A stretch of 32,152 nucleotides of DNA from contig CAZYSK010000067.1 of NCBI GenBank assembly GCA_964649415.1, forward strand, positions 191 through 32,342. Direction: 5' to 3'. Of this stretch, positions 1 through 26,900 are shown piece after piece. The notes below the pieces were generated by a model. The model was given only the letters and a program-made list of their open reading frames with translations, made no database searches and was not told where the DNA came from. Within the stretch, counting starts at the first letter, position 1. Every line of letters begins with the position of its first letter. This DNA comes from an uncultured Anaerolineales bacterium. Its GTDB lineage: Bacteria > Chloroflexota > Anaerolineae > B4-G1. Made by a program: the position numbers and the translations under genes.

Positions 1-113
1 GCGGTCAGACGGAGGATGGAGCGCCATCGGACGTACGAACAGACGCCCCACCAACCTACGAACCTAGCGATCTACCGAATTCCGATCAAGCGGATCGTCC
101 CAATCCGAGGGTT

Positions 114-1061
114 GTGATGTGCGTAGATGACGATGAAGGAGTGATCGGTCTCTTCCGCCGTTACCTGAGCAGACAGGGCTATCGGGTTGCCAGCCTGACG
201 GACAGCGCAGCGGTGGTGCAGACCGCCCGGCGGCTTCAGCCGTTTGCCATCACCCTGGATGTCGTTATGCCCGGCAAGGACGGCTGGCAGATCATTCAGG
301 AACTGAAGGCCGACACGGCGACACGGCATATCCCGGTCATTGTGTGTACGATCGTAGGTGACAAGAAAGAGCGTGGCCTCAGCCTGGGTGCCGCCGGCTA
401 CCTGATCAAACCGATCCTCGAAGACGACCTGATAGATGCCTTGGAACGTCTAGACCAGGCGGATGCCCGGCATGAAGCGTCAGTGGAAGCGGCCGCTGAG
501 CTTCCCTCAACGGTGGGAAGAAATCGTCTGGAAGAAGAAGCGTGCCGGGTGCTGATCATCGACGACCATGCAGACGACCGAAAGCTCCTACGCCGAATGA
601 TCGAGGGGCAGGATGGTACGGACGTGGAACGGCAGCGTCGATATGAGGTTATGGAAGCCGCCGGAGGCGAAGAGGCCATCACCCTGATTCAGGAGGCCCG
701 TCCCACCATCATCATTCTAGACCTCATGTTGCGGGACATGGATGGCTTCGCTGTCCTGGAATCCATCAAGGGGGATGAAGCCACTCGCTCCATTCCCATA
801 ATCATCGTGACTGCCAAGGACCTGACGCCGGAGGAACAGGACACCCTGCATCGAGGCGCAGAGTCTCTGTTGCAGAAAGGGCTCTTCAAACGGCAGGATC
901 TGTTGGCAGACGTGGCTGCGGCTCTTGAGCGGATGCAGACGTCGACATCTGGCGTCGGGCGTCAGCGGAAGGGCCTTGATCATTCGGACGTTGATCCCGA
1001 CCGTCTGCCCGACCGTCCGCGGTCGACGTCGGCTGCGTCCGAGGCAGAAGACGGAGTCTAG
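114..1061 (+). CDS. Response regulator with two tandem CheY-like receiver (REC) domains. The last ~25 aa are encoded by a family-2 GC-rich repeat. The start may be the ATG at 117, which has a GAGGG RBS.
   Basis: The 315-aa ORF has two REC signatures: VDDDEG...LDVVMPGKDGW...KP, and LIIDDHADD...ILDLMLRDMDGF...IIIVTAKDL. The acidic pocket, phospho-acceptor Asp, conserved Thr and Lys are present in both domains. The ORF ends 5 nt before the next gene. Confidence 0.8.
   Translation: MMCVDDDEGVIGLFRRYLSRQGYRVASLTDSAAVVQTARRLQPFAITLDVVMPGKDGWQIIQELKADTATRHIPVIVCTIVGDKKERGLSLGAAGYLIKPILEDDLIDALERLDQADARHEASVEAAAELPSTVGRNRLEEEACRVLIIDDHADDRKLLRRMIEGQDGTDVERQRRYEVMEAAGGEEAITLIQEARPTIIILDLMLRDMDGFAVLESIKGDEATRSIPIIIVTAKDLTPEEQDTLHRGAESLLQKGLFKRQDLLADVAAALERMQTSTSGVGRQRKGLDHSDVDPDRLPDRPRSTSAASEAEDGV
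987..1041. repeat. Family-2 GC-rich dispersed repeat (GACGTTGATCCCGACCGTCTGCCCGACCGTCCGCGGTCGACGTCGGCTGCGTCCG) forming the C-terminal tail of the tandem-REC gene
   Basis: Related copies at 4055..4127 and 9538..9620 are in the same orientation. The element contains the palindromic CCGCGG / GTCCGCGGTC core. Confidence 0.5.
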
Positions 1062-1066
1062 GAGAA

Positions 1067-2788
1067 ATGAACGAATCTACTGAACAAGAGCGATTCAGAC
1101 ACCAAGTCTGGTTGGAGTGCAAAGCGTGTGGCCATCGAGTCCCATTCACCCATCCCGTGAAGGTGTGTGAGCAATGCGGAGGGGCCTGGATAGACGCCCG
1201 CTACGACTACGAAGCCGTACGGAAACTATGGCCCGCTGCCCTACGCGACCGCCCTTTCGACATGTGGCGGTATCGAGAGCTACTCCCGGTTCGTGACCAC
1301 GCGCACAAGGTGACTATGGGCGAAGGCGGGACCCCCCTGCTCCAGGCAGCCAACCTGGGAATGATGCTGGGCTGTCCGCACATTTACTTCAAAGACGAAC
1401 GCCAGGGACCGACGGGCTCCTTCAAAGACCGACAGGCCGCGCTGGCCATCTCGGTGATGAAGGAGCACGGCGTGATGGAGGCGGTGGTGGCATCTACAGG
1501 CAACGTCGCCATCTCATACTCGGCCTACTCTGCACTGGCCGGCATCAAGATGTGGGCGTTTCTCACCAGCCTGGTGCCCTCGGAGAAGATGCGCGAGGTG
1601 GCTCTCTACGGCAGCGAAGTGGTCAAAGTGACATCCACCTACGACGAGACCAAGAAGGTCGCAGCGGAGTTCGCGGCGCGCAAGGGGCTGTTCCTCGACC
1701 GGGGCATCCGGGGCATCTCGGCCCGAGAGGCCATGAAGACGGTCGCTTTCGAGACAGCTGAACAACTGCCCGCGCTCCTGGGCCTCAGGCCAAGCCATGG
1801 CGACACGCCCTGGCGCACACCGGACTGGTACATCCAGGCAGTGAGTGGAGGAATGGGGCCGGTAGGCGTGTGGAAAGCGTACGAGGAGTTGATGACGCTG
1901 GGCCTGGTCGACCGAATGCCGAGACTGGCGTGCATTCAGGCGGCGGGCTGCGCGCCGATGGTCCACTCATTCCAGAAAGGGCTGGACGAGGCGGAGACGG
2001 TGACCAACCCTCAGACACTGGTCATCACCATCGCCACCGGGAGCCCTGGCCCGGCCTATTCCTACCTGGCCCACGTTATCCGGGAGCATGGCGGCGCTTT
2101 CGAGGCAGTCACCGACGATGAGACGTTCCGTGCCATGCACGTGATGGCCAAGCTAGACGGCATATCAATGGAACCAGCGGCGGCGACAGCTTTCGCCGGG
2201 TTGTTCAAGCTGCTCAACAAGGGCGTCATCGGGCGCGATGAAGTCATCGTTGTCAACTGCTCGGGTCACACGTTCCCGGTCGAGAAGCACCTCCTGGGAA
2301 ACGAATGGGCGCGCACGGTGGAGTTGCCTGCGGAGAAGCCAACCGTCCAGGAAGGAGCCGCTTTGCTTCCCTTTGCAACAGAAGGGCTGCTCGGGACGCT
2401 GGGGCAACTGAACGGGCGGGTCCGGTCAATCGCCATCATCGAGGACGACTCACAAGCCCGGCTGCTGCTGCGGCGCATTCTACAGACGCGCGGCGAATAC
2501 CAGATCTTCGAGGCTCCCGATGGCGCTGCGGGGCTCGAGATGGTGCGCGCCCAACGGCCTGACGTCATCCTGTTGGACCTGATGATGCCAGGCATGGACG
2601 GCTTTGAGGTGTTGGACGCGCTCAAGGATGACGAGCAGGTAAGCGACGTGCCAGTGATCGTCATCACGGCCAAGGAGTTGACTGCGACGGAGCGAGATCG
2701 GCTCAGCAAGCAGACCGAGAAGTTGCTGGAGAAAGGCTCCTTCACCGACGAGGACCTGCTGGAAGAGATTCTGAAGCGGGCATCGTGA
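1067..2788 (+). CDS. Threonine-synthase-like PLP-dependent enzyme (fold type II) with an N-terminal Cys4 zinc-ribbon, fused to a C-terminal REC receiver domain
   Basis: The N-terminus has CKACGH...CEQCGG. The PLP-lysine motif PTGSFKDRQAA matches the ThrC / Trp-synthase-beta superfamily, and there is a glycine-rich SGGMGPVG loop. A ~130-aa linker follows, then a canonical REC domain (IAIIEDD...LLDLMMPGMDGF...VIVITAKEL). Confidence 0.75.
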   Translation: MNESTEQERFRHQVWLECKACGHRVPFTHPVKVCEQCGGAWIDARYDYEAVRKLWPAALRDRPFDMWRYRELLPVRDHAHKVTMGEGGTPLLQAANLGMMLGCPHIYFKDERQGPTGSFKDRQAALAISVMKEHGVMEAVVASTGNVAISYSAYSALAGIKMWAFLTSLVPSEKMREVALYGSEVVKVTSTYDETKKVAAEFAARKGLFLDRGIRGISAREAMKTVAFETAEQLPALLGLRPSHGDTPWRTPDWYIQAVSGGMGPVGVWKAYEELMTLGLVDRMPRLACIQAAGCAPMVHSFQKGLDEAETVTNPQTLVITIATGSPGPAYSYLAHVIREHGGAFEAVTDDETFRAMHVMAKLDGISMEPAAATAFAGLFKLLNKGVIGRDEVIVVNCSGHTFPVEKHLLGNEWARTVELPAEKPTVQEGAALLPFATEGLLGTLGQLNGRVRSIAIIEDDSQARLLLRRILQTRGEYQIFEAPDGAAGLEMVRAQRPDVILLDLMMPGMDGFEVLDALKDDEQVSDVPVIVITAKELTATERDRLSKQTEKLLEKGSFTDEDLLEEILKRAS

Positions 2789-2825
2789 CGGCACTCCGGC
2801 GGAGACCTGACGGGGCGAACAAAAA

Positions 2826-2976
2826 GCATGGAGCGCCATCGGAATGGCGCCTTCAAATGGAGCATGGAGCGCCATCGGAATGGCGCCTTCAAATGGAGCA
2901 TGGAGCGCCATCGGAATGGCGCCTTCAAATGGAGTATGGAGCGCCATCGGAATGGCGCCTTCAGATAGAGCATGGA
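2826..2976. repeat. Family-1 hairpin repeat: four tandem copies of a 36-bp unit (ATGGAGCGCCATCGGAATGGCGCCTTCAAATGGAGC) containing the perfect palindrome GCGCCATcggaATGGCGC
   Basis: Four directly abutting units fill the intergenic space between the ThrC-REC gene and the hybrid HK gene. A partial copy is also present at 15..32 of the window. Confidence 0.85.
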
Positions 2977-4447
2977 TCAAGCAATCAAAGTACTATACGT
3001 GGAAGACGATCCGGCAAGTGTGACGTTGGTGCGTCGCGTGCTCGAGAATGAAGGTTACCAGATTGTCGCCGCCCCTGATGGCCTTTCGGGCATCGAGGCA
3101 GCCAGGCAGGAACTGCCGGACCTGATCCTGATGGATATCGACGTCGGAGGACTGGACGGCTACGAGGTGAGCACCAGGCTACGGAGCATCGAGGAACTGA
3201 AGAAGGTACCCATCGTGGCCGTCACTGCCGCACGCATGCGCGGCGACCGAGAACGAGCGCTCATAGCCGGTTGCACTGGCTACATCCCCAAGCCCATCGA
3301 CGTAGATACATTCTCGGAGCAAGTGCGTTCTTTCCTCCGGGGGACCAAGGAGGATGTTGAGTCGGCGGAGGAGAAAGCGGGGTACCTGGTCGAGTACAGC
3401 CATAGGCTGGTGGACCGATTGGAAAAGAAACTGCGCGAGCTGGAGAAGGCTCATGCGGATCTCCAGCGCTTGGATAAGATGAAGACGGACTTCATCATCC
3501 TGTCCAGTCACGAACTTCGCACCCCTCTCACCGCCATTTATGGCTACGCCCAGATTCTCCGATCCAACCCCGCCATCCCCGGCTCCGCCGATGATGCTGG
3601 CAGTCCACGCTGCATCGTAGAGAGGATGGCGGAAGCGACGTGGCGCTTGAACCAGGTGATAGGCGATATCCTCAACGTCGCGCTGCTTGACGCCCGGGAA
3701 CTGGACCTGGCGACAGAGCCGGTCTTCCTGGACTCTCTGATACACAAGGCCGTGCGGAGCATCAGCGACTCAGCGCCTGATCGGCAACTGACCTTCGATC
3801 TCGGAGGGCTAGATAACCTCCCGCGGGTGACAGGGGACTCGAAACGCCTGTACCAGGCACTGTGGAACGTGATCAGCAACGCGGTGAAGTACACGCCCGA
3901 CGGAGGGCGTATCCGTATCACAGGAGATCAGATCGAGGATACGGCGCACGTGGCTGTCCAAGACAATAGGGGGCAGGATACAGGAGTACCACGGATAGGA
4001 GAAATACACGATGGGAGAGGCGGAGGGCAGGAGGCAGGAGGCAGGGAGACGGCAGACATTAACCCCGACCGTCTGCCCCCGACTGTCCGCGGTCGGCACC
4101 GTCCGCGGTCGACGCCGGCTGCGTCCGTGCACGTGGTCGTCCAGGACAGTGGAGTAGGAATTCCTCCAGAGGATCAGGAACGCATCTTTGATCGCTTCTA
4201 CGTGCTGGAGAACACGGATCTCCACTGCTCCAGCAAGACGGCGTTCAAGGGGGGCGGGTTGGGCGTTGGGCTCACCGTAGCACGGGGCATCATCAGAGCG
4301 CACGGGGGCAGAATCTGGGCAGAAAGCGAAGGGTACGACGAAGAGCGGCTGCCGGGCAGTACCTTCCACATCCTCCTGCCGCAGAGACAGGAAGAAGCGG
4401 GAGGCAAGAGGCAAGAGGGGTCGCCGGACATGCTGACAGATTGGTGA
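2972..4447 (+). CDS. Hybrid sensor histidine kinase: N-terminal REC, then HisKA (H-box SHELRTPLTAI) and HATPase_c, with a 61-codon in-frame repeat insertion before the G1 box
   Basis: The REC domain reads VLYVEDDP...LMDIDVGGLDGY...KP. The H-box is FIILSSHELRTPLT. The N-box-like segment is VISNAVKYTPDGGRIRI. The G1 box DSGVGIP and G2 box GGGLGVGL are present. The ORF is continuous across the insertion. Confidence 0.8.
   Translation: MDQAIKVLYVEDDPASVTLVRRVLENEGYQIVAAPDGLSGIEAARQELPDLILMDIDVGGLDGYEVSTRLRSIEELKKVPIVAVTAARMRGDRERALIAGCTGYIPKPIDVDTFSEQVRSFLRGTKEDVESAEEKAGYLVEYSHRLVDRLEKKLRELEKAHADLQRLDKMKTDFIILSSHELRTPLTAIYGYAQILRSNPAIPGSADDAGSPRCIVERMAEATWRLNQVIGDILNVALLDARELDLATEPVFLDSLIHKAVRSISDSAPDRQLTFDLGGLDNLPRVTGDSKRLYQALWNVISNAVKYTPDGGRIRITGDQIEDTAHVAVQDNRGQDTGVPRIGEIHDGRGGGQEAGGRETADINPDRLPPTVRGRHRPRSTPAASVHVVVQDSGVGIPPEDQERIFDRFYVLENTDLHCSSKTAFKGGGLGVGLTVARGIIRAHGGRIWAESEGYDEERLPGSTFHILLPQRQEEAGGKRQEGSPDMLTDW
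3965..4129. repeat. In-frame 183-bp composite insertion (purine-rich GGCAGGAGG repeats plus a family-2 GC-rich repeat), flanked by an 18-bp imperfect direct repeat at 3947..3964 and 4130..4147
   Basis: CACGTGGCTGTCCAAGAC and CACGTGGTCGTCCAGGAC match at 15 of 18 positions and flank the element. At protein level HVAVQD is duplicated as HVVVQD. Removing the insertion restores a canonical ..TAHVAVQDSGVGIP G1-box context. Confidence 0.55.
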
Positions 4448-4513: not shown

Positions 4514-5431
4514 CTAACCGTGCTTCCACTCCAGGGGCTCGTTGCCCTGCGCCAGGTGCATACCCGGATCGCGCATCATCAATACCATGCCAACGACCAA
4601 CAGCGCGCCGCCGATCCATTGCACCGGCGACAGACGTTCACCCAGCAGCAGAAAGGCAAGCGCCAGGCTGATTAGCAGTTCGAGCAGGCCGAACAAAGCT
4701 GTCTCCACGCCTCCCACCCGCTGCAATCCACTGAACATCGCCAGCCGCGACAGGGCAGTCGTCAGTCCTAGCGCCAATATAGCGGATAGACCGGAAGGTG
4801 TGACGGGCTCCACCGGCTGTCCCTCCAACACCCGTGCCAGACCCACCACACCCGCCATGGCGGTCAGTATGTACAGCGTAGCGGTACGGGATGGCACATC
4901 GGCCAACACCCACTGCCCCAACACCAGATGCCAACCGTAGATAGCCGCCGACGCGACCATCATAGTCACTCCCAGCCAGTCCAACTTGCCCGTCCCTGAG
5001 CGCGTCAACAGAAAGACTCCCAGCATCGAAAGCGCCAGGCGAGCCAACGTGAGCATCGTCAGTGGCTGCCCAGATGCAAAGAGGAATAACACGACCCACA
5101 GCGGATAGAGCGTGTTGAGCAACGCGGCGAGGGAAGCGTCGAGACGCGAGAGGCTGGTGTAGTAAAACAGGGAGCCCAAACCATTGACTGCCCCCACACT
5201 GATGCACCCAAGCAGCCCACGCCAGGAGATGACAATCTCTCGACGCCACAAGAGCGCGAAGGCCAGCCAGATCAGAACGGCTGCGACAGCCGTCCGAAGT
5301 GCGGCGAGGGTGAAGGGCGTGACCCCGCTCCGATAAGCGAACTTGCCCAGAATGGGCGCCCAGCCAAGAAAGAAACTGGCCATACACGTGCTCACGATCC
5401 CATGACGCTGCTCGCGGCTCAAATGGTCCAT
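4514..5431 (-). CDS. DMT-superfamily (EamA-like) 10-TM transporter. The likely start is MDHLS at 5431 with a GGGAG RBS. The ORF extends to 5497.
   Basis: The ORF has about 10 hydrophobic helices in two repeated halves (EamA-like). The amino-acid composition is typical of drug/metabolite transporters. Confidence 0.7.
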   Translation of the reverse strand: MDHLSREQRHGIVSTCMASFFLGWAPILGKFAYRSGVTPFTLAALRTAVAAVLIWLAFALLWRREIVISWRGLLGCISVGAVNGLGSLFYYTSLSRLDASLAALLNTLYPLWVVLFLFASGQPLTMLTLARLALSMLGVFLLTRSGTGKLDWLGVTMMVASAAIYGWHLVLGQWVLADVPSRTATLYILTAMAGVVGLARVLEGQPVEPVTPSGLSAILALGLTTALSRLAMFSGLQRVGGVETALFGLLELLISLALAFLLLGERLSPVQWIGGALLVVGMVLMMRDPGMHLAQGNEPLEWKHG

Positions 5432-5487
5432 CTCACTCCCATCGGTTCCAGGCGGGCGCGGGGACCGCGCCCCTACGCGGTGGCTTG

Positions 5488-5645
5488 TGGACGCCATCAG
5501 AATGGCCTTCTTGGGTTGATCGGGGCCATCAGAATGGCCTTCTTGGGTTGATCGGGGCCATCAGAATGGCCTTCTTGGGTTGACTAGGGCCATCAGAATG
5601 GCGTCCTTGAACAGGACTGGTGCGCCACCGGAATGGCGCCATCCT
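5488..5645. repeat. Family-1 hairpin repeat array: three and a half tandem copies of a 32-bp unit (GGCCATCAGAATGGCCTTCTTGGGTTGATCGG) followed by a GCGCCACCGGAATGGCGCC variant
   Basis: The units are directly abutting and the GGCCATcagaATGGCC palindrome is visible. The array lies in the divergent intergenic region between the transporter and the 5684 ORF. Confidence 0.85.
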
Positions 5646-5683
5646 ATTGCGCGATGACGGCGTTTGTGATACACTCGCGCTTG

Positions 5684-6373
5684 ATGACTCAGAGACAAAG
5701 ACATACGATTGCCGCGCTGGCGATCGCCAACATCGTCATTATTCTCGCCTTGTCAGTGCTCGTGGCACCGTCTACCGGTGGGCGCAGTGACCGTGCCCAT
5801 TCCATCGTGAAGGGAAGCGATGCGGCCCATTCCACTATGGAGGGAAGCGAAGCGGCTCCTACCACTGTGAAGGGAAGCGAAGCGGCCCCCGGCCACGAAG
5901 ACCACGCCCCTGTTGAGCTGGTGTGCCAATGGAAAGCCACGCAGTTGCTCGCTCAAGCCGGCCTGGGCGGCAAACTGACCCTGGCTCCTGATGGACCGCT
6001 CCAGGTCGAGATCACCACAGACCTGACAGGGCAGATGCCACGGACGCATGCACCCGGTGGAGAACCTGTCAGGTCCGTTGACGAGGCCGCCCATTCCACC
6101 ATAGAGGGAAGCGAAGCGGCCCAATACGTATGGACAGCCTTCGACATCGCACTGGCCTTGCTGGAACAGGAGAAGGAATGCGCCACATTCACACAGGTCG
6201 AAGTCAGGATTCTGGCGCACGGCCACACCACCACTACGCAGATCAGCGCGATCGTCAATACGGCTGACCTGTCATCTTTCAGCGCAGGTGAACTCAGCGA
6301 GGACGCGTTCATCGAGCGCGTGGAATACACAAGCACCGCGATAAGTGAGAACGGATTGTTCCGATCCGAGTAA
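5684..6373 (+). CDS. Hypothetical membrane-anchored protein whose central region is built from 30-bp family-1-like repeats (the ORF extends upstream to 5633)
   Basis: The N-terminus has a TM helix, IAALAIANIVIILALSVLV. Three or more tandem 30-bp units (GCGGCCCATTCCACTATGGAGGGAAGCGAA) encode the repeat AHSTMEGSEAA. The C-terminal ~90 aa look protein-like. The upstream ATG at 5633 lies inside the repeat array. Confidence 0.35.
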   Translation: MTQRQRHTIAALAIANIVIILALSVLVAPSTGGRSDRAHSIVKGSDAAHSTMEGSEAAPTTVKGSEAAPGHEDHAPVELVCQWKATQLLAQAGLGGKLTLAPDGPLQVEITTDLTGQMPRTHAPGGEPVRSVDEAAHSTIEGSEAAQYVWTAFDIALALLEQEKECATFTQVEVRILAHGHTTTTQISAIVNTADLSSFSAGELSEDAFIERVEYTSTAISENGLFRSE

Positions 6374-6399: not shown

Positions 6400-6625
6400 A
6401 CAAGAGGGCAGGAGGCAGGAAGCAGGAAGCAGGAGGCAAGGGACAGGGATGAAAGACAGCGCGCCATCGGAATGGCGCCGTCTGATAATGGATGGCGCGC
6501 CATCGGAATGACGCCGCCTGATGGGGGATAGTGCGCCATCGGAATGACGCCGCCTGATGGGGGATAGTGCGCCATCGGAATCGCGCCGTCTGATGATGGA
6601 TGGTGCGCCACTGGTCAGAATGGCA
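6400..6625. repeat. Purine-rich GGCAGGAGGCAGGAAGCAGGA tract followed by four tandem ~37-bp family-1 units (GCGCCATCGGAATG(A/G)CGCCGCCTGATGGGGGATAGT)
   Basis: The array is directly visible and lies immediately upstream of the GH-like gene. The units degenerate toward the 3' end. Confidence 0.85.
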
Positions 6626-17229: not shown

Positions 17230-18732
17230 TTACACTTGATGGATGAGGATGGGCGACAGCCACGTGGTATCGTTGCGATCAATGGACAATTCGCACCTTG
17301 CATGCCAAAGCGCAACTTCTGGTCTGCCCTGGTCCAGCAGGGACTTATAGAAGGCCAGGGCCAATCGCCGAGCGCCGTCGTCGGATACAGGCCAGCGATA
17401 GCCCACCACCGAGGGCACACCGGCCTGGGCGACTGCATCGGCCAATCCGAGGAAGTCATCATCGAGCAGAGCAACCTTTCCACCCGACGCTGTGCCGTAG
17501 CAACTGCTCAGATAGACGAGGCGCACCCCCGATTGCCCAAGTAGCAGCCTGACTTCGGTCGCCCGCATAGGCACGATGCCCCCTTGCTTGTCCGCCTCAG
17601 CCCAGAAGTAGAGGCTACTTTCTTCGGGAGAGTCGGCCTCATAGGAACCATGCCCTGCATAATGTACCACGTCGTAGTTCTGTGCCTTCAACTCTGCTCT
17701 GACGCGTTCGTATGTGGCTTGTTCCGTGGCGATGAGCTTCACGTCAACCGGGATACGATCCTGGCCTTTCAAATAACTGGATAGCTCTTGTGCCTCGGCA
17801 TCAGCCCCATCAATCGGAGGCAGAGTCTTCGAAGTCGTGTTCGACGCGATGATCAGCACGCGCAGTTCTTTCGTCAGTGCCAGCACGCGAGGCGAGATCG
17901 CTTCGCGCTTTGGGGTAGCCTCACACACAAACCGGGCAAGCGGATGCTGAAGCACCAGGTATTCCTGAGGGGCATCCGAGTACATGAACTCCATTGGAAG
18001 ACACACATACTCCCTGGGAGTCTCAAATTGCAGCGAGAGCAACTGGCTGCTGGCACGGGCCGTCAGATAGGTCTCTTTGGCCTCGGGTTGCTCACCGAAT
18101 ACGTCACGCCATAGGTCGCGACCGATCTGCTCGACCTGCAAACGCAGGTTGTTCCAGTCTTGCCTGGCAACTTCGGTCCTCCTCGCATATCGCTCGACGT
18201 CTAGCACCAGCGCCCTGCCCGACCGCCGGGAGCAAACGTGATAGCCACGCGATCTTATCGCCAAGTGCTGCCTTGCCACAAGAGACAGGGACAGCCTGGA
18301 TTCATCGCCGAAATTCTTAAGCTGTGGTTCTCTTGGCTCGTCGCATATCCCCGGCCTGTCTCTCGTCTCCGCGATGATCTCCAAGACTTGTTTGACCACA
18401 TCTGGCGTCTTCTCGACGAATTGCTCTACCCCAAGATACCGAATCGCGCGGACGATTTGCTTGGCCCTCACATAGCGCGTTAGCAAGATGACGTGGACCT
18501 TCGGATCCAGAGCGCGGAAAGCCATCGCCAGACTCGAACCACTTTCGTCCTCCTCGCCACCTTCGTGCAGACGTACATCAATGAGCGCAAAATCGAAGGG
18601 CTCCTGTATGACCGCGTCCAGTGCCTGTCCCTCATTGGATGCCACCCGCACGGTATGCCCCTCATCGGAGAGCCGCCCGCGCAATGTATCCCGGAAGTCA
18701 GGCTCATCGTCTACTACCAGTATCTTGTACAT
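17230..18732 (-). CDS. Response regulator with N-terminal REC and C-terminal CHAT (caspase-like) protease domain. The start is MYKIL at 18732 with a GAGGGGG RBS. The ORF extends to 18834.
   Basis: The REC domain reads ILVVDDEPD...LIDVRLHEGGEEDESG...ILLT...K. The CHAT His/Cys dyad context is VVHYAGHG and RLVYLSSCYGT, with the typical ~400-aa CHAT layout. Confidence 0.75.
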   Translation of the reverse strand: MYKILVVDDEPDFRDTLRGRLSDEGHTVRVASNEGQALDAVIQEPFDFALIDVRLHEGGEEDESGSSLAMAFRALDPKVHVILLTRYVRAKQIVRAIRYLGVEQFVEKTPDVVKQVLEIIAETRDRPGICDEPREPQLKNFGDESRLSLSLVARQHLAIRSRGYHVCSRRSGRALVLDVERYARRTEVARQDWNNLRLQVEQIGRDLWRDVFGEQPEAKETYLTARASSQLLSLQFETPREYVCLPMEFMYSDAPQEYLVLQHPLARFVCEATPKREAISPRVLALTKELRVLIIASNTTSKTLPPIDGADAEAQELSSYLKGQDRIPVDVKLIATEQATYERVRAELKAQNYDVVHYAGHGSYEADSPEESSLYFWAEADKQGGIVPMRATEVRLLLGQSGVRLVYLSSCYGTASGGKVALLDDDFLGLADAVAQAGVPSVVGYRWPVSDDGARRLALAFYKSLLDQGRPEVALWHARCELSIDRNDTTWLSPILIHQV

Positions 18733-18797
18733 CGCTACGCCCCCTCGCGCCATCGCCTGCGACTGTGGAAAAGGATCACCGGACAAGCCACTCAGAC

Positions 18798-19688
18798 TCA
18801 CTCGACTGCGTCCCACCTCTCCCGTATGTAGCACATGGCCGCCCTAACATCCAGGTTCCGCGTCGAATTGCCCATACGCACCCAGAACTCGTGAGAGTCA
18901 CCCTTGCCCAAGAAAACCGGCCTTGGGCTTTCGTCAATGGAGACGGCGCAGATGCGCTTGCCATCCATCAACTCGAAACGTGGGTGGATATACAGCACGT
19001 ATTCCGCACCCAAATTGACCTGGACAATATCGGTCAGCAACAGTTGGAATCCGTCGATATCTGACTTGCGCAGGGTCTGCAAGTCTCTTTCAATACCCAG
19101 TATCGTGCCATCGTCAGCGACGCCAAGGAGCAGATGCCCGCCCCCGCAATTCAGCATCCCGGCTATCGCCCTGGCAATCTCCTCCTGCAATCTCTTGTTG
19201 ACTCTGTTCTGCCTGTAGTCCCAACGAATACTGGACTTAAACTCCACCCGGTCATTCTCACCCTGGGCGATCAATTCGACGACATCTGGGGCCGCGCATT
19301 CAACCGCGCGCTTCACATATCCCGGCAATTGACTCACTTCGGATTTCTCCAGGAAGCCAAAGGCTGGCGCAACCCCGTCGTGGTCCGGTTGGAGGGCCTC
19401 ACGCACCATCTTGACGTCCGCGTAGCCGGTCAAGATGATGATAGCCACGCTGGGGTCCTTCTCTCTGATCTCGTGCATGAGCACAAGGCCGTCGCGGTTT
19501 TCTTCGTCAGCCTCGTCCAGGCGGACGTCCAGGACTGCGACGTGAAAACGCTCGGCATCCACCATGTGCAGAGCTTCGGCTCTGCTGGACGCCAAGCGTA
19601 CGTCGTAACCATCGTCTGACAGAAGACCCGACAGCGTCACGCGCACGTCGGGCAGATCATCCACGACAAGAACGCGCCCTCTGTGCAC
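18798..19688 (-). CDS. Response regulator with N-terminal REC and C-terminal AlbA_2 (Schlafen-like) domain. The start is GTG.
   Basis: The REC domain reads VLVVDDLPD...VLDVRLDEADEENRDG...IILTGY...EKS. The C-terminal segment ENDRVEFKSS...AIAGMLNCGGGHLLLGVADDGTILGI...FWVRMGNSTRNL matches the AlbA_2 / Schlafen core. It lies 24 nt downstream of the preceding REC gene. Confidence 0.7.
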   Translation of the reverse strand: MHRGRVLVVDDLPDVRVTLSGLLSDDGYDVRLASSRAEALHMVDAERFHVAVLDVRLDEADEENRDGLVLMHEIREKDPSVAIIILTGYADVKMVREALQPDHDGVAPAFGFLEKSEVSQLPGYVKRAVECAAPDVVELIAQGENDRVEFKSSIRWDYRQNRVNKRLQEEIARAIAGMLNCGGGHLLLGVADDGTILGIERDLQTLRKSDIDGFQLLLTDIVQVNLGAEYVLYIHPRFELMDGKRICAVSIDESPRPVFLGKGDSHEFWVRMGNSTRNLDVRAAMCYIRERWDAVE

Positions 19689-20114: not shown

Positions 20115-20503
20115 TGTCCCCCTCCTTCGCGGTTATCATGACGTCGATGCCCTATCGCGGCGGACGAGGGAATAATACCCTCGACGTGCTCAACCAGGTC
20201 CCGGTCACCGAAGGATTTGGCGAAATAGCGCTTGGCCCCCAGCCGGTAAGCCGCCAGGGCCTCCTCAGTCGTGGGCTGGACGGTCGTCACCACGACCCGC
20301 TTATCGGCGTATTTCTCGGCGATGATCTCAAGCACGTCCAGGCGGCGGGAACTCGCGATGACCAGATCGAACTGGTTCGCCTCAAGCTCGGTGATGGCAG
20401 TCTCCTTGTCAGGCGCGACGACTATCTCGAACTGGTTCAAGTCGTTCTTGGCGAACTCTATCCAGCAAGGTTCATCGTCGATGATCAGAATGCGCGTTCT
20501 CAT
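20111..20503 (-). CDS. Atypical (pseudo-)receiver domain protein that apparently lacks the phospho-acceptor Asp
   Basis: The REC fold is recognisable: ILIIDDEP in beta1, VVVTTV carrying the Thr, and YFAKSF carrying the Lys. Beta3 reads FDLVIASS, so the acceptor Asp position holds Ala. It overlaps both the HK stop and the next REC gene by 4 nt. Confidence 0.65.
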   Translation of the reverse strand: MRTRILIIDDEPCWIEFAKNDLNQFEIVVAPDKETAITELEANQFDLVIASSRRLDVLEIIAEKYADKRVVVTTVQPTTEEALAAYRLGAKRYFAKSFGDRDLVEHVEGIIPSSAAIGHRRHDNREGGGQ

Positions 20504-23500
20504 CGCGACACCTCCCCTCCTGCCCCTGGCGCTGGGATATGAACCAGCATGGTCGTTCCCGTGGAGTCGCTGCGCTCTATTTTAACATCACCGCCCAGAC
20601 TTTGCAACATCAGGCTGTTCAACCACAACCCCAGCCCGCTCCCCCCTCTCGGCTCCTTGGAAGGGACGGGCTTGGCGAACAGGCGTTGCTGAACTCTGGA
20701 TGGAATGCCTGGCCCCGTATCCCGAACGCGCACGCAGATGCTGCCGTCCGTCAGACGGCTGGCAACAGTCAACCGACCGCCGTCCTCCATCGCACGATAG
20801 GCATTGTCAGCCAGGTTGCGAAAGACCTCGGAGACCTGCCCAATGGGGGCCTGGATCTGCGGAATGGAGTCGTCCAGGTCCAGAGTAACCGCTATCGCCG
20901 AACGAACCGGGTCGGCTTGCCATCGCTCTCTCGTCCTGCCCACCACGTCATTCAGCACGGCATTGACGTCCACCGCCTGAACCTCGATCTCCCGCAGCGG
21001 CTCCTGGATGCGCGCGATGATCTCCGAGGTATAGCGGGCGTTGCGCTCGATGATGTCGAGGATCTCGGCGATGGTTTCGTCCGCGACGTCCACGCGCTTG
21101 CGCAGGCGCGTCACGTTGGGGACGATGATGTTGAAGGTGTTGTTGATGCGGTGCCGCAGCGCCGCCATTGCGGTGCCCAGCGTCGCCAGTTGCTTGGCGG
21201 CGATGGCCTCGCCGCGCGCTTGCTCATACAGCCGGGCGTTGTCCAGGGCGATGGCAGCCTGGCTGGCCATGGAGAGTAGGACTTGCAGGTCCTGCTCATC
21301 GTAGGCATGTTCTCGCTCCCAATCCTGCATAGCGATCACGCCCAGCGCCCTCTCGCCTATGACCATAGGAACACCTAGCCAAGAACCTGACAAACGTCCA
21401 ATGAACTCTTGGTGTCCGGGTTGCCCATACCACGCCTCGGCCTCCGCCGACGTGCGATGCAAGATGGGTTCCTTGGTGAGGATGATCTCTTCGGTCTTGC
21501 CCCGCCTCTCCATATCCGCCTGGCGGGATTCGTAGTGTACCCGTTCTCCCTGCTCCGTCGCCAGGCCGAAGTGGATCGTGTTCGCTTCCCCATCGTACAA
21601 GGCGATGTACATGTCCTGCGCGCCCGTCAGCCTCTTCGCCTGTTCGTAGATCAGTTCCAGGATCTCGTCTTGCTTCAGGCGAATCCCCGACGTCAATGTT
21701 CTCCCCACCTCGTTGAGCGCCGCCAAGGCCTCCACGCGACGCGCCAGCTTGCGGTTGACGTCGTAGTAGAGCTCTGCGTTGTCCAGCGCGATGGCGGCCT
21801 GGCTGGCCATGGAGGAGAAGACCTGCAAGTCTCGATCATCGTAGGCATGCTCTCGCTCCCAATCCCACAGGGCGAGCACGCCCAGTACTTTCTCACCCAC
21901 CACCATCGGAACACCCAGCCAAGAGAGTGGAACTCGTCCAATGAACTCTTGGTGTCCCGGCTGCCCATACCAGGCTTCGGACTCCGCCAGGGTGCGATGC
22001 AAGATGGGTTCCCTGGTAAAGATGACCTCTTCGGTCTTGCCTCGCGTCTCCATATCCGCCGGGCGGGATTCGTATTGCACCCGTTCGCCATGCTCCGTCG
22101 CCAGGCCGAAGTGGATCTCCCCCTTTTCCTCATCGTATAAGGCGATGTACATATCCTGTGCGCCAGTCAGCCTCTTCGTCTGTTCGTAGATCAACTCCAG
22201 GATCTCGTCCTGCTTCAGGCGAATGCCGGACGTCAGTGTCTGCCCAACCCCATTAAGCACCTGCATAGCATCGCTAAACGCCTGCATAGCCCCATAGGCA
22301 CGTGCGCTCTCAATGGCCACCGCGGCTGCCCCGGCAAGCGCCTCAACCAGGCGCACGTGATCCTCTGCGAATGCTCCAGCCTCCGTGCTCTCCAGGTCCA
22401 GGATCCCAATCACCCGGTCACCATAACGCAAGGGTGCCGCCAGTTCAGACTGCACCTCGGCGTACCATTCCTGGTAATACGGATCGTCCTGGACATCGCG
22501 GCAGACGTAGGTTTCTCCCGTCGCAACCACGTGCGCGCTGATGCTGTTCCCAGAGAGAGGCAGACGGGACGTGCTGCGCGTCGGTTCCTTCTCCACCGCG
22601 TTCATGGCCCCGAAGCGCAGCTCAGTGCCGTGCTCGTCCAGCAACCAGACGCCGGTGTAGGTGGCCGGGGTAAGCCGGGCCGCGTATTCCGCGATGCGCT
22701 TCAGCAAGCTTTCCAGCGGCGCCTTTCCAATGAGGGCGTATATCTCCTGGAGGACTCGAATATCGTCCACACGTTCCTGGAGCCTGGCCCGGGTCTCCTC
22801 GTACAGCTCGGTGGTGCGGAATGCCACGGCCGCTTGCGCCGCCAGGGCCTCTGCCAGGTGCTGGTCGGCCTCGCTGAAGGCGTTCAGCCGGCTGCTTTCG
22901 GCATTGAGCACGCCGACCAGCCTATCGCCCGCCAGCATCGGAACGTCCAACTCCGACCGGGTGGCCTCCACGTGACACTTGTACCGGGGATCCTGCGACA
23001 CATCCGTGACGCGCACCGGCTCGCGCGTCTGGGCTGCGGTGCCGATCAATCCCTCACCCAGATCGATGCTCCTGTCGGGAGACTTGCCCATCGCGTACCT
23101 GAATTCCAGGCTTCCGGTTCCCGGATCGAACACGCTGATGGACCCAAACTCGCAATTCAGGAGTTCTAGGGACCGCTCCAACGTCCGCTGCAGCAATTTG
23201 TCTCTGTCCAGCACGGAGGTGATGTCACGTGCGATATCTTGAAGCGTCTCGCGTTGCTGGAATAGCTGAGCGTTGCGAATGGCGACCGCCGCCTGGTTGG
23301 CGAACAACTGGATCAGTTCCTGCTGTTCCGCCGGGAACCCTTGTGGTGTGCGGTAGTTGACGAACAAGATACCCACCGCCTCGTCGCCGACCAGCAACGG
23401 AATCGCGGCCGTGGAGGCGATCTGCTCCCTGAAGATGAAGCGCCGCTCCGGCATGCCCTCTCGGGCGATTTTGAAGGGGGCCGAAAGAAGCGGTTCATGC

Positions 23501-25281
23501 TGCGCGTCCGCAGCGAAGAGGGGGCGACTCAACGTAAGGACCTGCATCGCCACGTCGTCAGGCAGGATTTTCTTGGACGGCTTGACTTCCACCAGCATTC
23601 TTCCTCCAGAGACGTGATCAGCGACGCGATCCCGTCTGCCTGGACTGTAGCGATACAGCTCAACCAGATCAGCGCCTAACACACCCCTGGCCTGTTGTGC
23701 AATCTGCTGCAGCAGATCCTCAAGACTTTCCCCCGTCACCTCGACGGTGCTCAGACGCTGCCCCACCTTGTTCAGCGCTTCTAGCGCCTGGATCCGCCTC
23801 TGGATCTGCTCATACACGCGGGCGTTGTGGATCGCCATGGCCGCCTGGTTGGCAAGCAGTTCGATGACCCTCCGTTGATCAGGTGGAAACTCCTGGCGGG
23901 TCCGGTAGTTGACGAACATGACACCTACGGTCTCGCCAGCGGCCTTGAGCGGCACGGAAGCCGAAGACAGGACCCCCTCGCGCACGACGAAGCGCCGGTC
24001 CGGGCGCTCAGGACGCTCGACGGTGAACGAGCCGCTGAGCAAGCGATCAGCCTGGGCATCGCGCGTATAAAGCGGCTCGCCGCGCTTGACAACTTCTACC
24101 GCGATGTCGTCCCCGAAGATGTGCTCCTTGACGACATCGGGGACCCGCCGCTCCCCTTCCAGGATCGGCGGGAGGATGTACCGCTCCTCCCTTTCGACGT
24201 ACTGATACACGTCAACCAGGTCGGCACCCAGCACATCCCTGGCGCTCCGCGCCACGTGCTGCAATACCCTTGGCAATCCTCTCGCCGACACCTCGGCCGA
24301 TAGCAGTTCCTCCCCGATCCGATGCAACCTCTCCAGGGCCGCCGACCGGCTGGTCTCCTGCTCGATCAGCCTGGCGTTGCGCAATGCGGCCGCCGCCTGA
24401 CCTGCCAGTGTCTCCAGGAGCACCTGGTCCCGTTCGTCAAAGGCCGCCAGGCCGTCCTTGTCGGCCGAGATCACCCCGACAACCTCGTCGCCCAAGGTCT
24501 TGATGGGCACCACGAGCATTGAGCGTTCAGAGGCCTGTGAAGACCAGCCACGGACAAACCGCGGGTCATGCACCGCGTCCATGACGAGCGCCGGCTCCCC
24601 ATTCTGGGCTACCCAACCGGCCAATCCCTCCCCAATGGCAAAGCTCCTCTGCTCCACGCCCTCCGCGGACCGCGCCGCCATTTTGAGCACATCGGCGCTC
24701 TCATCCATCCGGAATATGCTGACGTGCTGGCAATCCAACACGCGCGCCGCAGACTGTGTGATATGCTCGAGCAGCCTGGGCAGTTTCAGGTCGGAGTTGA
24801 TCCAGAGGCTCACTTCGTTCAGGACCGCCAGATCCCGTATCCATCGCTGCGCGACAGCTACCTGCGCGGCCAGACCCTGGGCCAGAGCCTGCTGAGAATC
24901 GCTGAAGTCTCTAGCCTCGTACGCATAGACGTCCATGACTCCCACGACCGTGTTTTTCACCCGTAACGGCACTACCATGGCCGACTCAAGCCCCACGGCG
25001 GATGCCTCTTCCTTGAACGCCCAGCGGGCGTCCGAGGCGATGTCTTTGACTACAATCGGGCGCCCCGTCTTGAACACCTCCGACCCGACGCTGATTTCGT
25101 CCAAAGGCAGGGCCGCCGTGCGCATATAGTCACCCGGCAGGCCCTCGGATGCAACAAGGCGCAGAGCTTGCTTGACCTCATCGAGGAGCCAGATGCCGAC
25201 CGGCAACTCCAGGATCGAGCCGATTGTACCTACCAACGGTTGAAGAAACCGCTTTTCGCCAGGCCCTGTAGAGGCAGACAT
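20500..25281 (-). CDS. Soluble multi-GAF sensor histidine kinase (about 8-9 GAF domains, HisKA and HATPase_c), 1593 aa
   Basis: It has no TM helices. GAF-like units with inter-domain ALxNARLYEQ linkers recur along the protein. The C-terminal H-box is AALRHRINNTFNII. HATPase_c reads RNLADNAYRAMEDGGRLTV...VRDTGPGIP...GGSGLGLWL. A strong GGGGGGAG RBS precedes the ATG. Confidence 0.85.
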   Translation of the reverse strand: MSASTGPGEKRFLQPLVGTIGSILELPVGIWLLDEVKQALRLVASEGLPGDYMRTAALPLDEISVGSEVFKTGRPIVVKDIASDARWAFKEEASAVGLESAMVVPLRVKNTVVGVMDVYAYEARDFSDSQQALAQGLAAQVAVAQRWIRDLAVLNEVSLWINSDLKLPRLLEHITQSAARVLDCQHVSIFRMDESADVLKMAARSAEGVEQRSFAIGEGLAGWVAQNGEPALVMDAVHDPRFVRGWSSQASERSMLVVPIKTLGDEVVGVISADKDGLAAFDERDQVLLETLAGQAAAALRNARLIEQETSRSAALERLHRIGEELLSAEVSARGLPRVLQHVARSARDVLGADLVDVYQYVEREERYILPPILEGERRVPDVVKEHIFGDDIAVEVVKRGEPLYTRDAQADRLLSGSFTVERPERPDRRFVVREGVLSSASVPLKAAGETVGVMFVNYRTRQEFPPDQRRVIELLANQAAMAIHNARVYEQIQRRIQALEALNKVGQRLSTVEVTGESLEDLLQQIAQQARGVLGADLVELYRYSPGRRDRVADHVSGGRMLVEVKPSKKILPDDVAMQVLTLSRPLFAADAQHEPLLSAPFKIAREGMPERRFIFREQIASTAAIPLLVGDEAVGILFVNYRTPQGFPAEQQELIQLFANQAAVAIRNAQLFQQRETLQDIARDITSVLDRDKLLQRTLERSLELLNCEFGSISVFDPGTGSLEFRYAMGKSPDRSIDLGEGLIGTAAQTREPVRVTDVSQDPRYKCHVEATRSELDVPMLAGDRLVGVLNAESSRLNAFSEADQHLAEALAAQAAVAFRTTELYEETRARLQERVDDIRVLQEIYALIGKAPLESLLKRIAEYAARLTPATYTGVWLLDEHGTELRFGAMNAVEKEPTRSTSRLPLSGNSISAHVVATGETYVCRDVQDDPYYQEWYAEVQSELAAPLRYGDRVIGILDLESTEAGAFAEDHVRLVEALAGAAAVAIESARAYGAMQAFSDAMQVLNGVGQTLTSGIRLKQDEILELIYEQTKRLTGAQDMYIALYDEEKGEIHFGLATEHGERVQYESRPADMETRGKTEEVIFTREPILHRTLAESEAWYGQPGHQEFIGRVPLSWLGVPMVVGEKVLGVLALWDWEREHAYDDRDLQVFSSMASQAAIALDNAELYYDVNRKLARRVEALAALNEVGRTLTSGIRLKQDEILELIYEQAKRLTGAQDMYIALYDGEANTIHFGLATEQGERVHYESRQADMERRGKTEEIILTKEPILHRTSAEAEAWYGQPGHQEFIGRLSGSWLGVPMVIGERALGVIAMQDWEREHAYDEQDLQVLLSMASQAAIALDNARLYEQARGEAIAAKQLATLGTAMAALRHRINNTFNIIVPNVTRLRKRVDVADETIAEILDIIERNARYTSEIIARIQEPLREIEVQAVDVNAVLNDVVGRTRERWQADPVRSAIAVTLDLDDSIPQIQAPIGQVSEVFRNLADNAYRAMEDGGRLTVASRLTDGSICVRVRDTGPGIPSRVQQRLFAKPVPSKEPRGGSGLGLWLNSLMLQSLGGDVKIERSDSTGTTMLVHIPAPGAGGEVSR
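21236..22315. repeat. Intragenic tandem duplication: two ~540-bp (180-codon) GAF-domain units with high nucleotide identity inside the multi-GAF HK gene
   Basis: Unit 1 starts with GCGTTGTCCAGGGCGATGGC at 21236 and unit 2 with GCGTTGTCCAGCGCGATGGC at 21776, a period of 540. The encoded peptides LTSGIRLKQDEILELIYEQ(T/A)KRLTGAQDMYIALYD...GQPGHQEFIGR... are near-identical. Confidence 0.85.
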
Positions 25282-25486: not shown

Positions 25487-26827
25487 TCAATTGCGCCGCG
25501 CTTGCCTCCAGGCATCCAATTCAGCCTGGTATTCCGCTTCTGCAAACGCCAACCCCTTTTCCCGTAGCATCATAGCTGTGAGAACGTGAGGCAGGCCCTT
25601 TCGCTTCTCCAGGAACAGGATTTGAGAACCAGTGAGCGTATGCCCACCATTATCACTCAGGAATCGGTCAAGTTGGCGTCGCCCGCGCACCACGGTTCTC
25701 ATGAAACGCTGGGACTCACCCAAGAAATAGGTCATCAAGCGCTTCTCGTCCTCCGGCGTCGCCCGCAGGGAGCGATGAACCGTCCGGGAAATACAGCCCA
25801 TCACTCCCGGCAGGAATTCCCCGGACTCGATGCCGAGGACAATTTGCCGCGTCACGATGCCCCGTATCAGTAGCTTGACGATTCTCTCCCGGCCGTTCTT
25901 GCCCGGGGGAGGAGCCCCGTCCGCGACCAGGGTATACAGTGCCTTGGAATAGTCCGCAATCACGTGCTCGCTGGCACGGACCAGTGATTCCGGCATGTGA
26001 GAGGCACGCACGAAACCATGGATCGTGTCCACAAGGGGCCGGTAGGCATCCGTCTCAAACACCGACGCAGCGCCCTGCGAAATCATGGCCACGCGCTCGG
26101 TGCCGATGACCGTCTCAGCGAAGGGCTCCGCCATCTGACGCAGAGACCTGCTCTGGGGATCGAGTTCGCGGGAGATGAAGAGGGAATTGGAGAACTCGAC
26201 AAAGCGTCCGCACTTGCAGCCCGGCCTGCAAGCCGGCCCGCAGGCCTTTTCGGCACCCAGGTCATAGAACAACTCCGTGTTCGGCCCTGCCTTGCGGGGG
26301 GTCTCCATACCGTCAATCCCGCCGCCTTGCACCCAGTAGTTGTCATCCGGTCCCAGGCCAATGACGTGATCCCCGGGCACCCCTACCTCGATCCAGGCTC
26401 GACGTGTGACCCCGTCCCCCGGCAGATGCTCGCCCAAGACCGCCCCGCCCTCAAAATAGGAGACCCAGATGCGGCTCTGATCTATGCCGAGAACAGACGT
26501 GGCCAGTGTCCACATACGCCGAATGGTTTCGGCTTTCCCGTTTGGACCAAAGACAAATGCACCGGGCATTTCGAACAAGCTCAGGTGCGTGCCGTCAGTT
26601 CCGACCTTGTCGAGATCGAAGTGGCGAAAACACTCCTGAACGAGGACGAATTGGTCGCCGGGTCTTTCGTCCACCCGGGCCAGGGAGGTCTCTATCTGAA
26701 CTAGGCCGGCACTCATCACGTAAGACATGGGAATAGATGGGTGAAGCATAGGGGCGCGGGGCAGCGGGTGAAAGCCAAGTCCTTCGTAGTAACCTACAAA
26801 GCGCCGACGGATTGCAGAAGCGTTCAT
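25487..26827 (-). CDS. Truncated, divergent alanyl-tRNA-synthetase-like protein (class II catalytic core plus tRNA-recognition domain only; no editing or C-Ala domains), 446 aa from the ATG at 26827
   Basis: Alignment to AlaRS is recognisable. N-terminal IRRRFVGYYEGLGFHPLP corresponds to IRQ.FLDFF..KGH. QECFRHFDLDKVG..THLSLFEMPGAFVFG corresponds to QRCVRAGGKHNDLENVG..HHTFFEMLGNFSFG. AGPNTELFYDLG corresponds to CGPCTEIFYD. RFVEFSNSLFI corresponds to RYIEIWNLVFMQF. LTGSQILFLEKRKGLPHVLT corresponds to the tRNA-recognition DAFKLYDTYGFPLELT. The AGGKHND ATP-binding segment is shortened. The upstream in-frame ATG at 26881 lies upstream of the predicted promoter. Confidence 0.65.
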   Translation of the reverse strand: MNASAIRRRFVGYYEGLGFHPLPRAPMLHPSIPMSYVMSAGLVQIETSLARVDERPGDQFVLVQECFRHFDLDKVGTDGTHLSLFEMPGAFVFGPNGKAETIRRMWTLATSVLGIDQSRIWVSYFEGGAVLGEHLPGDGVTRRAWIEVGVPGDHVIGLGPDDNYWVQGGGIDGMETPRKAGPNTELFYDLGAEKACGPACRPGCKCGRFVEFSNSLFISRELDPQSRSLRQMAEPFAETVIGTERVAMISQGAASVFETDAYRPLVDTIHGFVRASHMPESLVRASEHVIADYSKALYTLVADGAPPPGKNGRERIVKLLIRGIVTRQIVLGIESGEFLPGVMGCISRTVHRSLRATPEDEKRLMTYFLGESQRFMRTVVRGRRQLDRFLSDNGGHTLTGSQILFLEKRKGLPHVLTAMMLREKGLAFAEAEYQAELDAWRQARRN

Positions 26828-26861
26828 ACTGACCCCTCTCACAGCTACACGCGGAACAGAG

Positions 26862-26900
26862 GCTACAATATTGTACCACACTTATCGGGGTTATGCAACA
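26862..26900 (-). promoter_or_regulatory. Predicted sigma70-like promoter of the AlaRS-like gene: -35 TTGCAT, 17-bp spacer, extended -10 TGgTACAAT
   Basis: On the minus strand the sequence reads TTGCATAACCCCGATAAGTGTGGTACAAT. A ~35-nt 5'UTR with a GAGAGGGG RBS precedes the ATG at 26827. A second copy with TTGCAC / TATAAT is conserved at 32060..32088. Confidence 0.55.

Follow-up and report, generated by a model that had tools for sequence, protein, structure and literature searches.

A threonine synthase-like enzyme with a C-terminal receiver domain, conserved beside sensor kinases and an EamA transporter in Chloroflexota

Response regulators usually govern transcription or second-messenger enzymes, and those with enzymatic outputs form a known kind, exemplified by the methylesterase CheB, the diguanylate cyclases PleD and WspR, and RpfG. 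Here we describe a gene from an uncultured Anaerolineales bacterium whose product joins a pyridoxal phosphate (PLP) enzyme of the threonine synthase (ThrC) fold to a receiver (REC) domain. It occupies positions 1067..2788 (forward strand) of a 32,152-nucleotide stretch of contig CAZYSK010000067.1, assembly GCA_964649415.1 (hereafter the window), and encodes 573 amino acids (aa) in a single open reading frame (ORF). As in CheB, PleD, WspR and RpfG, a receiver with a full set of phospho-acceptor residues is carried on an enzyme beside a sensor kinase, the logic of phosphorylation-gated catalysis; unlike those signalling enzymes, whose receivers are N-terminal, the output here would be a PLP-dependent enzyme that converts amino acids, and the receiver is C-terminal.

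Class I ThrC (Mycobacterium tuberculosis 2D1F; Thermus thermophilus 1UIM and 1V7C; Aquifex aeolicus 2ZSJ; Bacillus subtilis 6CGQ) has the same fold at 25-33% identity and shares with the window protein the SFKDR lysine, the ASTGN loop, and the EPA and SGH motifs; an N-terminal zinc ribbon like that of the window protein also occurs in some canonical ThrCs (P0172 and P0265). Unlike class I ThrC, however, the window protein lacks the NSxNPxR and GNxGN motifs, falls below the cut-offs of the models TIGR00260 and NF006050, and has a C-terminal receiver and a surrounding cluster of two-component and transporter genes. The plant enzyme (Arabidopsis thaliana 1E5X and 2C2B), a genuine ThrC and a structural neighbour, shows the fold controlled by an appended regulatory segment. 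This control is allosteric, exerted by S-adenosylmethionine at an N-terminal extension and not by receiver phosphorylation. ThrC-derived enzymes with new chemistry are likewise known: cysteate synthase (TIGR03844; CapA2 from Alistipes finegoldii, 9K3C) descends from ThrC with a changed substrate and sets a precedent.

Closer in domain plan is the PRK08197/NF006050 clade (about 400 aa; for example, WP_341472039.1 from a Candidatus Chlorohelix plasmid), in which a zinc ribbon is followed by a PLP domain of similar length; of the NCBIfam models, it is in fact NF006050 that scores highest on the window protein (274 bits). The motifs of that clade nonetheless differ (SAGNAG; EPYRVEGKKT, in general EPYRxEGKKT; PTGGGTG), and the window protein lies outside it, in a separate clade of the tree and below the model's cut-off. 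The LeuA-fused ThrC-like proteins (P0169, P0187 and others, about 610-622 aa) belong to the same superfamily and also bear a C-terminal regulatory domain on a zinc-ribbon enzyme. In P0169 and P0187 (619-620 aa) this is a LeuA allosteric/dimerisation domain, and P0188, P0219, P0228, P0231 and P0256 (610-622 aa) cluster with these two in the tree. They differ from the window protein in clade, in sequence (34-36% identity, with a GDYxFRxEGQKS motif), and in having an amino-acid-binding regulator instead of a phospho-receiver. Regulatory or accessory fusions seem to recur in the zinc-ribbon ThrC-like superfamily. Two distant ThrC-like proteins carry other N-terminal domains, inositol monophosphatase in P0249 and RNase H/RVT_3 in P0264. 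The literature searched yielded no paper on the PALP-REC architecture, nor any report of a bacterial class in which a ThrC-fold PLP enzyme bearing a receiver is conserved together with a kinase and EamA.

A receiver on a divergent threonine synthase fold

The ATG start codon of the gene is preceded by an AGGAG Shine-Dalgarno sequence that overlaps the stop codon of the gene upstream. A preliminary description of this DNA had proposed a full ThrC-fold PLP domain, complete with zinc ribbon, PTGSFKDRQ lysine and glycine loop, fused to a canonical receiver, and all of these elements are indeed present. Within the one ORF, Pfam places PALP at residues 82-400 (E 1.9e-59, 201.9 bits), which delimits the fold-type II PLP domain (1310..2266, +), and Response_reg at residues 455-567 (E 1.5e-21, 77.1 bits against a cut-off of 30.2), which delimits the receiver (2429..2767, +). 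Ahead of the PLP domain lies a four-cysteine zinc ribbon (C18, C21, C34 and C37; 1118..1177, +), matched weakly by DUF7129 in Pfam, whose cysteines are invariant across 57 aligned relatives, both fused and non-fused. The Schiff-base lysine, Lys120 (1424-1426), sits in PTGSFKDRQ and is invariant in the same alignment, as are G145, N146 and G262, so that the loss of the active-site lysine, named beforehand as a possible weakness of the proposal, does not apply; S143, T144, S260, G261, G264 and G400 are nearly invariant. Further motifs of the PLP domain are the ASTGN loop (142-146), the glycine-rich loop SGGMGP (260-265) and SGHT (399-402), with a divergent stretch, DRGIRGISAREAMKT, at residues 211-225.

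A flexible linker of about 45 residues (about 403-449; 2273..2413, +) connects the two domains. In the AlphaFold model (mean pLDDT 84.7, with the PLP domain mostly above 90), it falls below 50 between two confident domains. Its length and sequence vary between relatives, although G440 is invariant and L445 nearly so, and it ends in a short conserved EGLLGxLxQL helix immediately N-terminal to the receiver. The phospho-acceptor set of the receiver is complete, with an acidic pocket of E459, D460 and D461, the acceptor D504 (2576-2578), T534 and K556; D504 is invariant in the family, and D460 and K556 are at least 90% conserved. The closest solved REC structures match this receiver at E around 1e-15.

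The fusion is widespread. In a protein-cluster search covering 5.8 billion proteins, the best 120 clusters (554-587 aa, 76-100% identity) each combine PALP and REC, and more distant fused clusters, PALP-REC-REC forms of 708-715 aa among them, appear at 52-59% identity. When one genome per GTDB species was scanned, 585 stretches proved to encode a relative, which makes the family wider than one genome. The best 80 of these loci were analysed. All 80 are from Chloroflexota of Anaerolineae-type lineages (Anaerolineales, Thermoflexia, Caldilineae, Ardenticatenaceae and Promineifilaceae), and in all 80 the receiver is joined to the enzyme in one continuous ORF (median 563.5 aa), with PLP-domain identities of 53-81%. 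The identical protein is encoded on seven independently assembled contigs, and complete or near-complete genomes (CP070811.1, OW818655.1 and OY776212.2) carry the fusion, as do the large contig sets JADJOJ01 and CAVTZT01. The suspicion, raised with the original proposal, that a frameshift or read-through had joined two genes is thus at odds with the continuity of the fusion in the best 120 clusters, the best 80 loci and the seven contigs.

The enzyme domain has the ThrC fold and the SFKDR lysine. Its best solved sequence relative is M. tuberculosis ThrC 2D1F (160 bits; Foldseek target TM-score 0.87), and with the AlphaFold model as query, class I ThrCs as a group reach target TM-scores of 0.82-0.88, followed by plant ThrC, CapA2, and then TrpB, serine racemase and dehydratases. 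The preliminary label of ThrC-like therefore stands for the fold, whereas the name threonine synthase does not: the window protein reaches the cut-off of none of the curated ThrC models, scoring 274 against 303 on NF006050 (threonine synthase), 147.6 against 167.1 on TIGR00260 (thrC), and 177.5 against 421 on NF004170. Other fused members reach 144-166 on TIGR00260; for comparison, the range on that model is 285-336 for control zinc-ribbon proteins of canonical motif taken from the same search. A true PRK08197 member, P0197, scores about 573 on NF006050. Cysteate synthase was considered as an identity and rejected: on TIGR03844 the window protein scores 117.9 against a cut-off of 324.9, and CapA2, which has no receiver domain, matches it at 21% identity (target TM-score 0.76).

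A phylogeny of the PLP domain, which the preliminary description had called for, agrees with a ThrC-like enzyme that is not an orthodox ThrC. In a neighbour-joining tree, the fused proteins group with a few non-fused relatives (377-435 aa, 39-52% identity) in a clade of their own, at a large distance from canonical ThrC. This clade has replaced the NSxNPxR and GNxGN motifs common to class I and class II ThrC. Thermus, Mycobacterium and Aquifex ThrC share NSVNPxRxEGQKT and PVGNAGN, and the class II enzyme of Escherichia coli carries NSANSINISR and SGNFGD; the window clade instead has [DE][RQ]Gx[RK]xxxx[RKV]E[AS]MKT and QAVSGGxGP, which in the window protein read DRGIRGISAR and SGGMGP. Relative to Thermus ThrC, S155 has become G213, N188 has become G261 and N191 has become G264 in 12-13 of 13 fused members; further clade-specific exchanges are Q164 to M223, G64 to Q123 and G53 to R112, and the position of R160 is shifted. 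Still present are Lys120, the EPA and SGH motifs, and the ASTGN loop, which binds the carboxylate of the amino acid. This combination of lost and kept motifs suggests that the enzyme still binds PLP and an alpha-amino acid but recognises the distal group of its substrate differently, and the conserved basic residues R112, R212, R215 and R220 hint that this group is still anionic. NCBI names the relatives only "pyridoxal-phosphate dependent enzyme", and the "threonine synthase" used by JGI is probably an over-annotation, one that could mislead metabolic reconstructions of these organisms. The protein is probably not the housekeeping threonine synthase.

Kinases and a transporter around the enzyme gene

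Immediately upstream, ending with a stop codon 5 nucleotides (nt) ahead of the enzyme start codon, lies the 3' end of a giant hybrid histidine kinase (1..1061, +); in one relative the two genes overlap. The preliminary description took 114..1061 for a tandem-REC regulator. The frame is open from window base 3, so that this cannot be a complete gene, and it proves to be the C-terminal REC-REC portion of a PAS/GAF-HisKA-HATPase-REC-REC kinase of 2,265-2,289 aa on the window's own contig. By Pfam, that protein has multiple PAS and GAF domains, HisKA at 1651-1718, HATPase_c at 1765-1873 and two C-terminal receivers, which (REC1 at about nt 117-443 and REC2 at about nt 546-950) are its only domains inside the window. 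The enzyme-receiver protein thus has a histidine kinase encoded directly beside it.

Downstream of the enzyme gene is a second kinase (2972..4447, +), in which Pfam recognises REC, HisKA and HATPase domains (D55 and H180). Its earlier assignment as a REC-kinase holds for the domains; it is not a classical hybrid kinase, having its receiver at the N-terminus. A REC-kinase follows the enzyme gene in only 33 of 58 loci. Convergent with it is a gene for an EamA-family (DMT) membrane transporter (4514..5497, -), whose product contains two EamA repeats (Pfam, two stretches, E 6.9e-27) and matches no NCBIfam model at E <= 1e-20. The view of the neighbours as a two-component set was correct as far as it went, and overlooked this conserved transporter.

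Conservation of these neighbours was counted, among the best 80 loci, in the 70 with enough upstream and the 58 with enough downstream sequence. A kinase core orthologous to that of the window (48-78% identity) lies directly upstream of the enzyme in 55 of the 70; the length of the upstream kinase leaves space for two receivers in 41 loci, for one in 9 and for none in 8. In these last 8 loci a plain, non-hybrid kinase ends 29-147 nt upstream, and the receiver on the enzyme is its nearest. On the other side, where the REC-kinase follows, the spacer in the relatives compared is 14-106 nt or the genes overlap. An EamA homolog occurs within 3 kb downstream of the enzyme in 41 of the 58 loci; in 22 of these 41 it comes directly after the enzyme gene with no REC-kinase between, 19 times on the same strand, with gaps of 17-119 nt among the same-strand direct neighbours listed. 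Taken together, a REC-kinase or EamA gene lies downstream in 55 of 58 loci. Clustering of nearby ORFs into gene families across the 80 loci revealed no other widely shared neighbour, and the conserved unit is a sensor kinase, then the ThrC-like-REC protein, then an optional REC-kinase, then EamA. The PALP-REC-REC variant has a large HAMP/GAF/PAS kinase upstream and two single-domain receivers after it.

A multistep phosphorelay among these proteins, as first envisaged, finds no support: Pfam lists no HPt domain in the giant kinase, the enzyme-receiver protein or the REC-kinase, the three two-component proteins scanned, although a separate HPt protein may be encoded elsewhere. The 8 loci with a plain kinase upstream favour ordinary transfer from kinase to receiver over such a relay.

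Function of the fused enzyme and competing explanations

Observed directly are the arrangement of the domains, the conservation of residues and of neighbouring genes, and the divergence from ThrC. The explanation that we favour, to which we assign a probability of about one half, is that the protein serves the upstream kinase as its cognate response regulator, with a ThrC-like, non-housekeeping output enzyme tied to EamA. Because a conserved fusion of a ThrC fold to a canonical receiver is found within a two-component cluster, it is reasonable to suppose that phosphorylation controls the enzyme. The giant PAS/GAF sensor kinase would autophosphorylate and pass the phosphoryl group to Asp504 of the receiver, and in some lineages the downstream REC-kinase may contribute phosphorylation. 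On its tether of some 45 flexible residues, the phosphorylated receiver would then alter the activity or the oligomeric state of the PLP domain; whether it acted by dimerisation, docking or release can only be surmised. In the PLP domain, Lys120 and the ASTGN loop would bind an alpha-amino acid, and its distal, probably anionic, group would be read by R112, Q123, R212, R215, R220 and the glycines at 213, 261 and 264, a remodelled pocket in place of the phosphate site that Ser155, Arg160 and Asn188 form in ThrC. The substrate or product would cross the membrane through the co-conserved EamA transporter. In this scheme, which way the phosphoryl group travels, what phosphorylation does, which reaction is catalysed and what part the transporter plays are all inferred. 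A more specific version, which is possible but doubtful, unites the kinase, the ThrC-like-REC protein and EamA in a module for "make-and-export" or "import-and-convert" that is gated by a signal: the PLP enzyme, with its new substrate pocket, would become active once Asp504 was phosphorylated and would make or destroy a non-canonical amino acid, or a signal derived from an amino acid, that moves through EamA.

Several points weigh against the favoured explanation. The AlphaFold model shows no confident contact between the domains, and for this reason regulatory coupling of the PLP domain to the receiver is purely a matter of conjecture. A receiver placed C-terminal to its enzyme is the less common order among response regulators. 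Of the 58 loci with enough downstream sequence, 17 have no EamA gene within 3 kb. The argument from the substrate pocket depends on the assignment of Thermus S155, R160 and N188 as the residues that hold the substrate phosphate. Finally, P0124, the closest of the relatives without a fusion, has housekeeping genes around it and narrowly passes the cut-offs of TIGR00260 and NF006050, and the fused enzyme may itself serve as the housekeeping ThrC of these organisms. Searches for a canonical thrC bear on this last point. No second ThrC-like gene lies within 10 kb of the enzyme-receiver gene in the best 80 loci, and none is encoded on 12 metagenome stretches (60.6 kb) that carry a hairpin repeat of the window (see below); a tblastn search of plasmids with Thermus ThrC gave a single match in Chloroflexota, a non-canonical, PRK08197-type protein from Candidatus Chlorohelix, which is outside Anaerolineae.

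An alternative that we consider unlikely is that the PLP domain does not catalyse but senses, as in GabR/MocR: an amino acid bound as external aldimine would change the ability of the receiver to accept or lose phosphate, and the receiver would be a metabolite-gated phosphate sink or a modulator of the neighbouring kinases. C-terminal receivers, as in CheV and hybrid kinases, often have just such roles. The cluster is rich in receivers, with two on the upstream kinase and one on the REC-kinase; their number shifts between kinase and enzyme among lineages, and no DNA-binding output, any more than an HPt domain, is listed by Pfam in the three two-component proteins. On the other hand, PLP-binding and substrate-loop residues are kept in non-fused relatives, and the two of these with readable neighbours have no two-component gene cluster around them; the ancestral role of the clade therefore looks catalytic. 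Around the non-fused P0131, P0124 and P0136, contigs are short or neighbours housekeeping-like and offer no clue to the chemistry. A conserved transporter neighbour, moreover, fits a metabolite that is made or consumed. The contexts of the non-fused relatives and the link to the transporter thus favour catalysis over sensing, two functions that sequence alone cannot separate.

Next in order, and likewise improbable, is a genuine threonine synthase that converts O-phosphohomoserine to threonine, with the receiver tuning threonine supply and EamA acting as an RhtA-like exporter of threonine or homoserine. Several of the observations given above speak for such an enzyme: the top sequence and fold matches are threonine synthases, JGI gives the relatives that name, Lys120, the carboxylate-holding ASTGN loop and the EPA and SGH motifs are retained, the non-fused P0124 just passes both models and lies in a housekeeping setting, and more distant ThrC-like proteins carry regulatory additions such as the LeuA allosteric domain. 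The EamA family, for its part, includes the E. coli threonine/homoserine exporter RhtA. Yet the window protein is under every curated ThrC cut-off, NCBI commits itself merely to a PLP-dependent enzyme, and the NSxN...R and GNxG elements found in both ThrC classes have been replaced throughout the clade. Nor does any of the 80 loci have a second ThrC-like gene within 10 kb, and since only kinases and EamA are conserved nearby, neither hom nor thrB is a conserved neighbour. As for an artefact in which frameshift, read-through or mis-assembly had brought together a ThrC-like gene and an independent gene for a response regulator, the sole feature to raise suspicion is the low-complexity linker predicted to be disordered, and the conservation of the fusion described above (identical on independent contigs, continuous at about 550-590 aa in all the clusters and loci considered, and found in two-receiver variants too) refutes it.

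Other features of the window and implications

The spacer between the enzyme and REC-kinase genes is filled by four tandem 36-nt repeats (2825..2976, +), each with the hairpin GCGCCAT-CGGA-ATGGCGC. Further arrays lie at 5493-5609 and 6461-6610, with single copies at 5622, 6722 and 7933 and a unit of 32-36 nt. Allowing up to 3 mismatches, the hairpin repeat occurs in 12 copies, where chance would give 0.14; every copy is on the forward strand, and all are confined to the region from 2.8 to 8.0 kb. Rfam recognises no known RNA family anywhere in the window, the repeat arrays included, and an exact 22-mer of the repeat was found in 12 JGI metagenome stretches only, all from the Ga018043x sample series. 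The repeat resembles a REP-like element, specific to the lineage, that lengthens the spacers between genes. Two assemblies of the window's own contig (L006 and L007) differ in the length of the giant kinase, 2,265 against 2,289 aa or 72 nt, and in spacing downstream of EamA (for example, 14535 against 14567 and 15515 against 15583); these differences could reflect a copy number of the 36-nt repeats that varies from one population or assembly to another.

Repeats also seem to have entered coding sequence. The REC-kinase has a 61-aa in-frame insertion in its ATPase domain (nt 3956-4138), which is missing from four orthologs (414-445 aa). Some 60 nt of this insertion (CCCGACCGTCTGCC...ACCGTCCGCGGTCGACGxCGGCTGCGTCCG) correspond to the 3' tail of the giant-kinase gene at about 995-1040 (29/30 and 29/32 identities), and it appears that a short repeat of high GC content has moved into the REC-kinase gene. 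Beyond EamA, a membrane-anchored hypothetical protein of 246 aa (5633-6373, +) contains a 30-nt tandem repeat at 5795-5888 that encodes GSEAA-type units, probably another repeat expansion inside a gene; its putative counterparts in close relatives, matched by position downstream of EamA, have 168-175 aa.

A second signalling cluster with unusual receiver fusions (17230-18834, 18798-19688 and 20500-25281, all on the reverse strand) comprises REC-CHAT, in which CHAT is a protease domain of the caspase-like type, and REC-Schlafen/AlbA_2, together with a kinase of 1,593 aa that contains eight GAF domains. A CHAT protease under receiver control may merit separate attention. Farther along, an ORF of 464 aa (25487-26881, -) covers only the catalytic core of a class II alanyl-tRNA synthetase (tRNA-synt_2c positions 2-427 of 552). 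It is far shorter than the full enzyme and may be a truncated paralog or a split gene.

Chloroflexota of the Anaerolineae type are abundant in sediments, sludge and hot springs, and very little experimental genetics exists for them. The pairing of EamA with a huge PAS/GAF sensor supplies a concrete hypothesis for a ThrC-like clade that is otherwise uncharacterised. If the favoured explanation is true, phosphorylation control of a PLP-dependent amino-acid enzyme would be a new class of output, linking two-component signalling directly to metabolism. Should the more specific, signal-gated module exist, it would include the first response regulator known to act through a PLP-dependent enzyme that converts amino acids, and it might bring to light a new metabolite or signal secreted by filamentous Chloroflexota.

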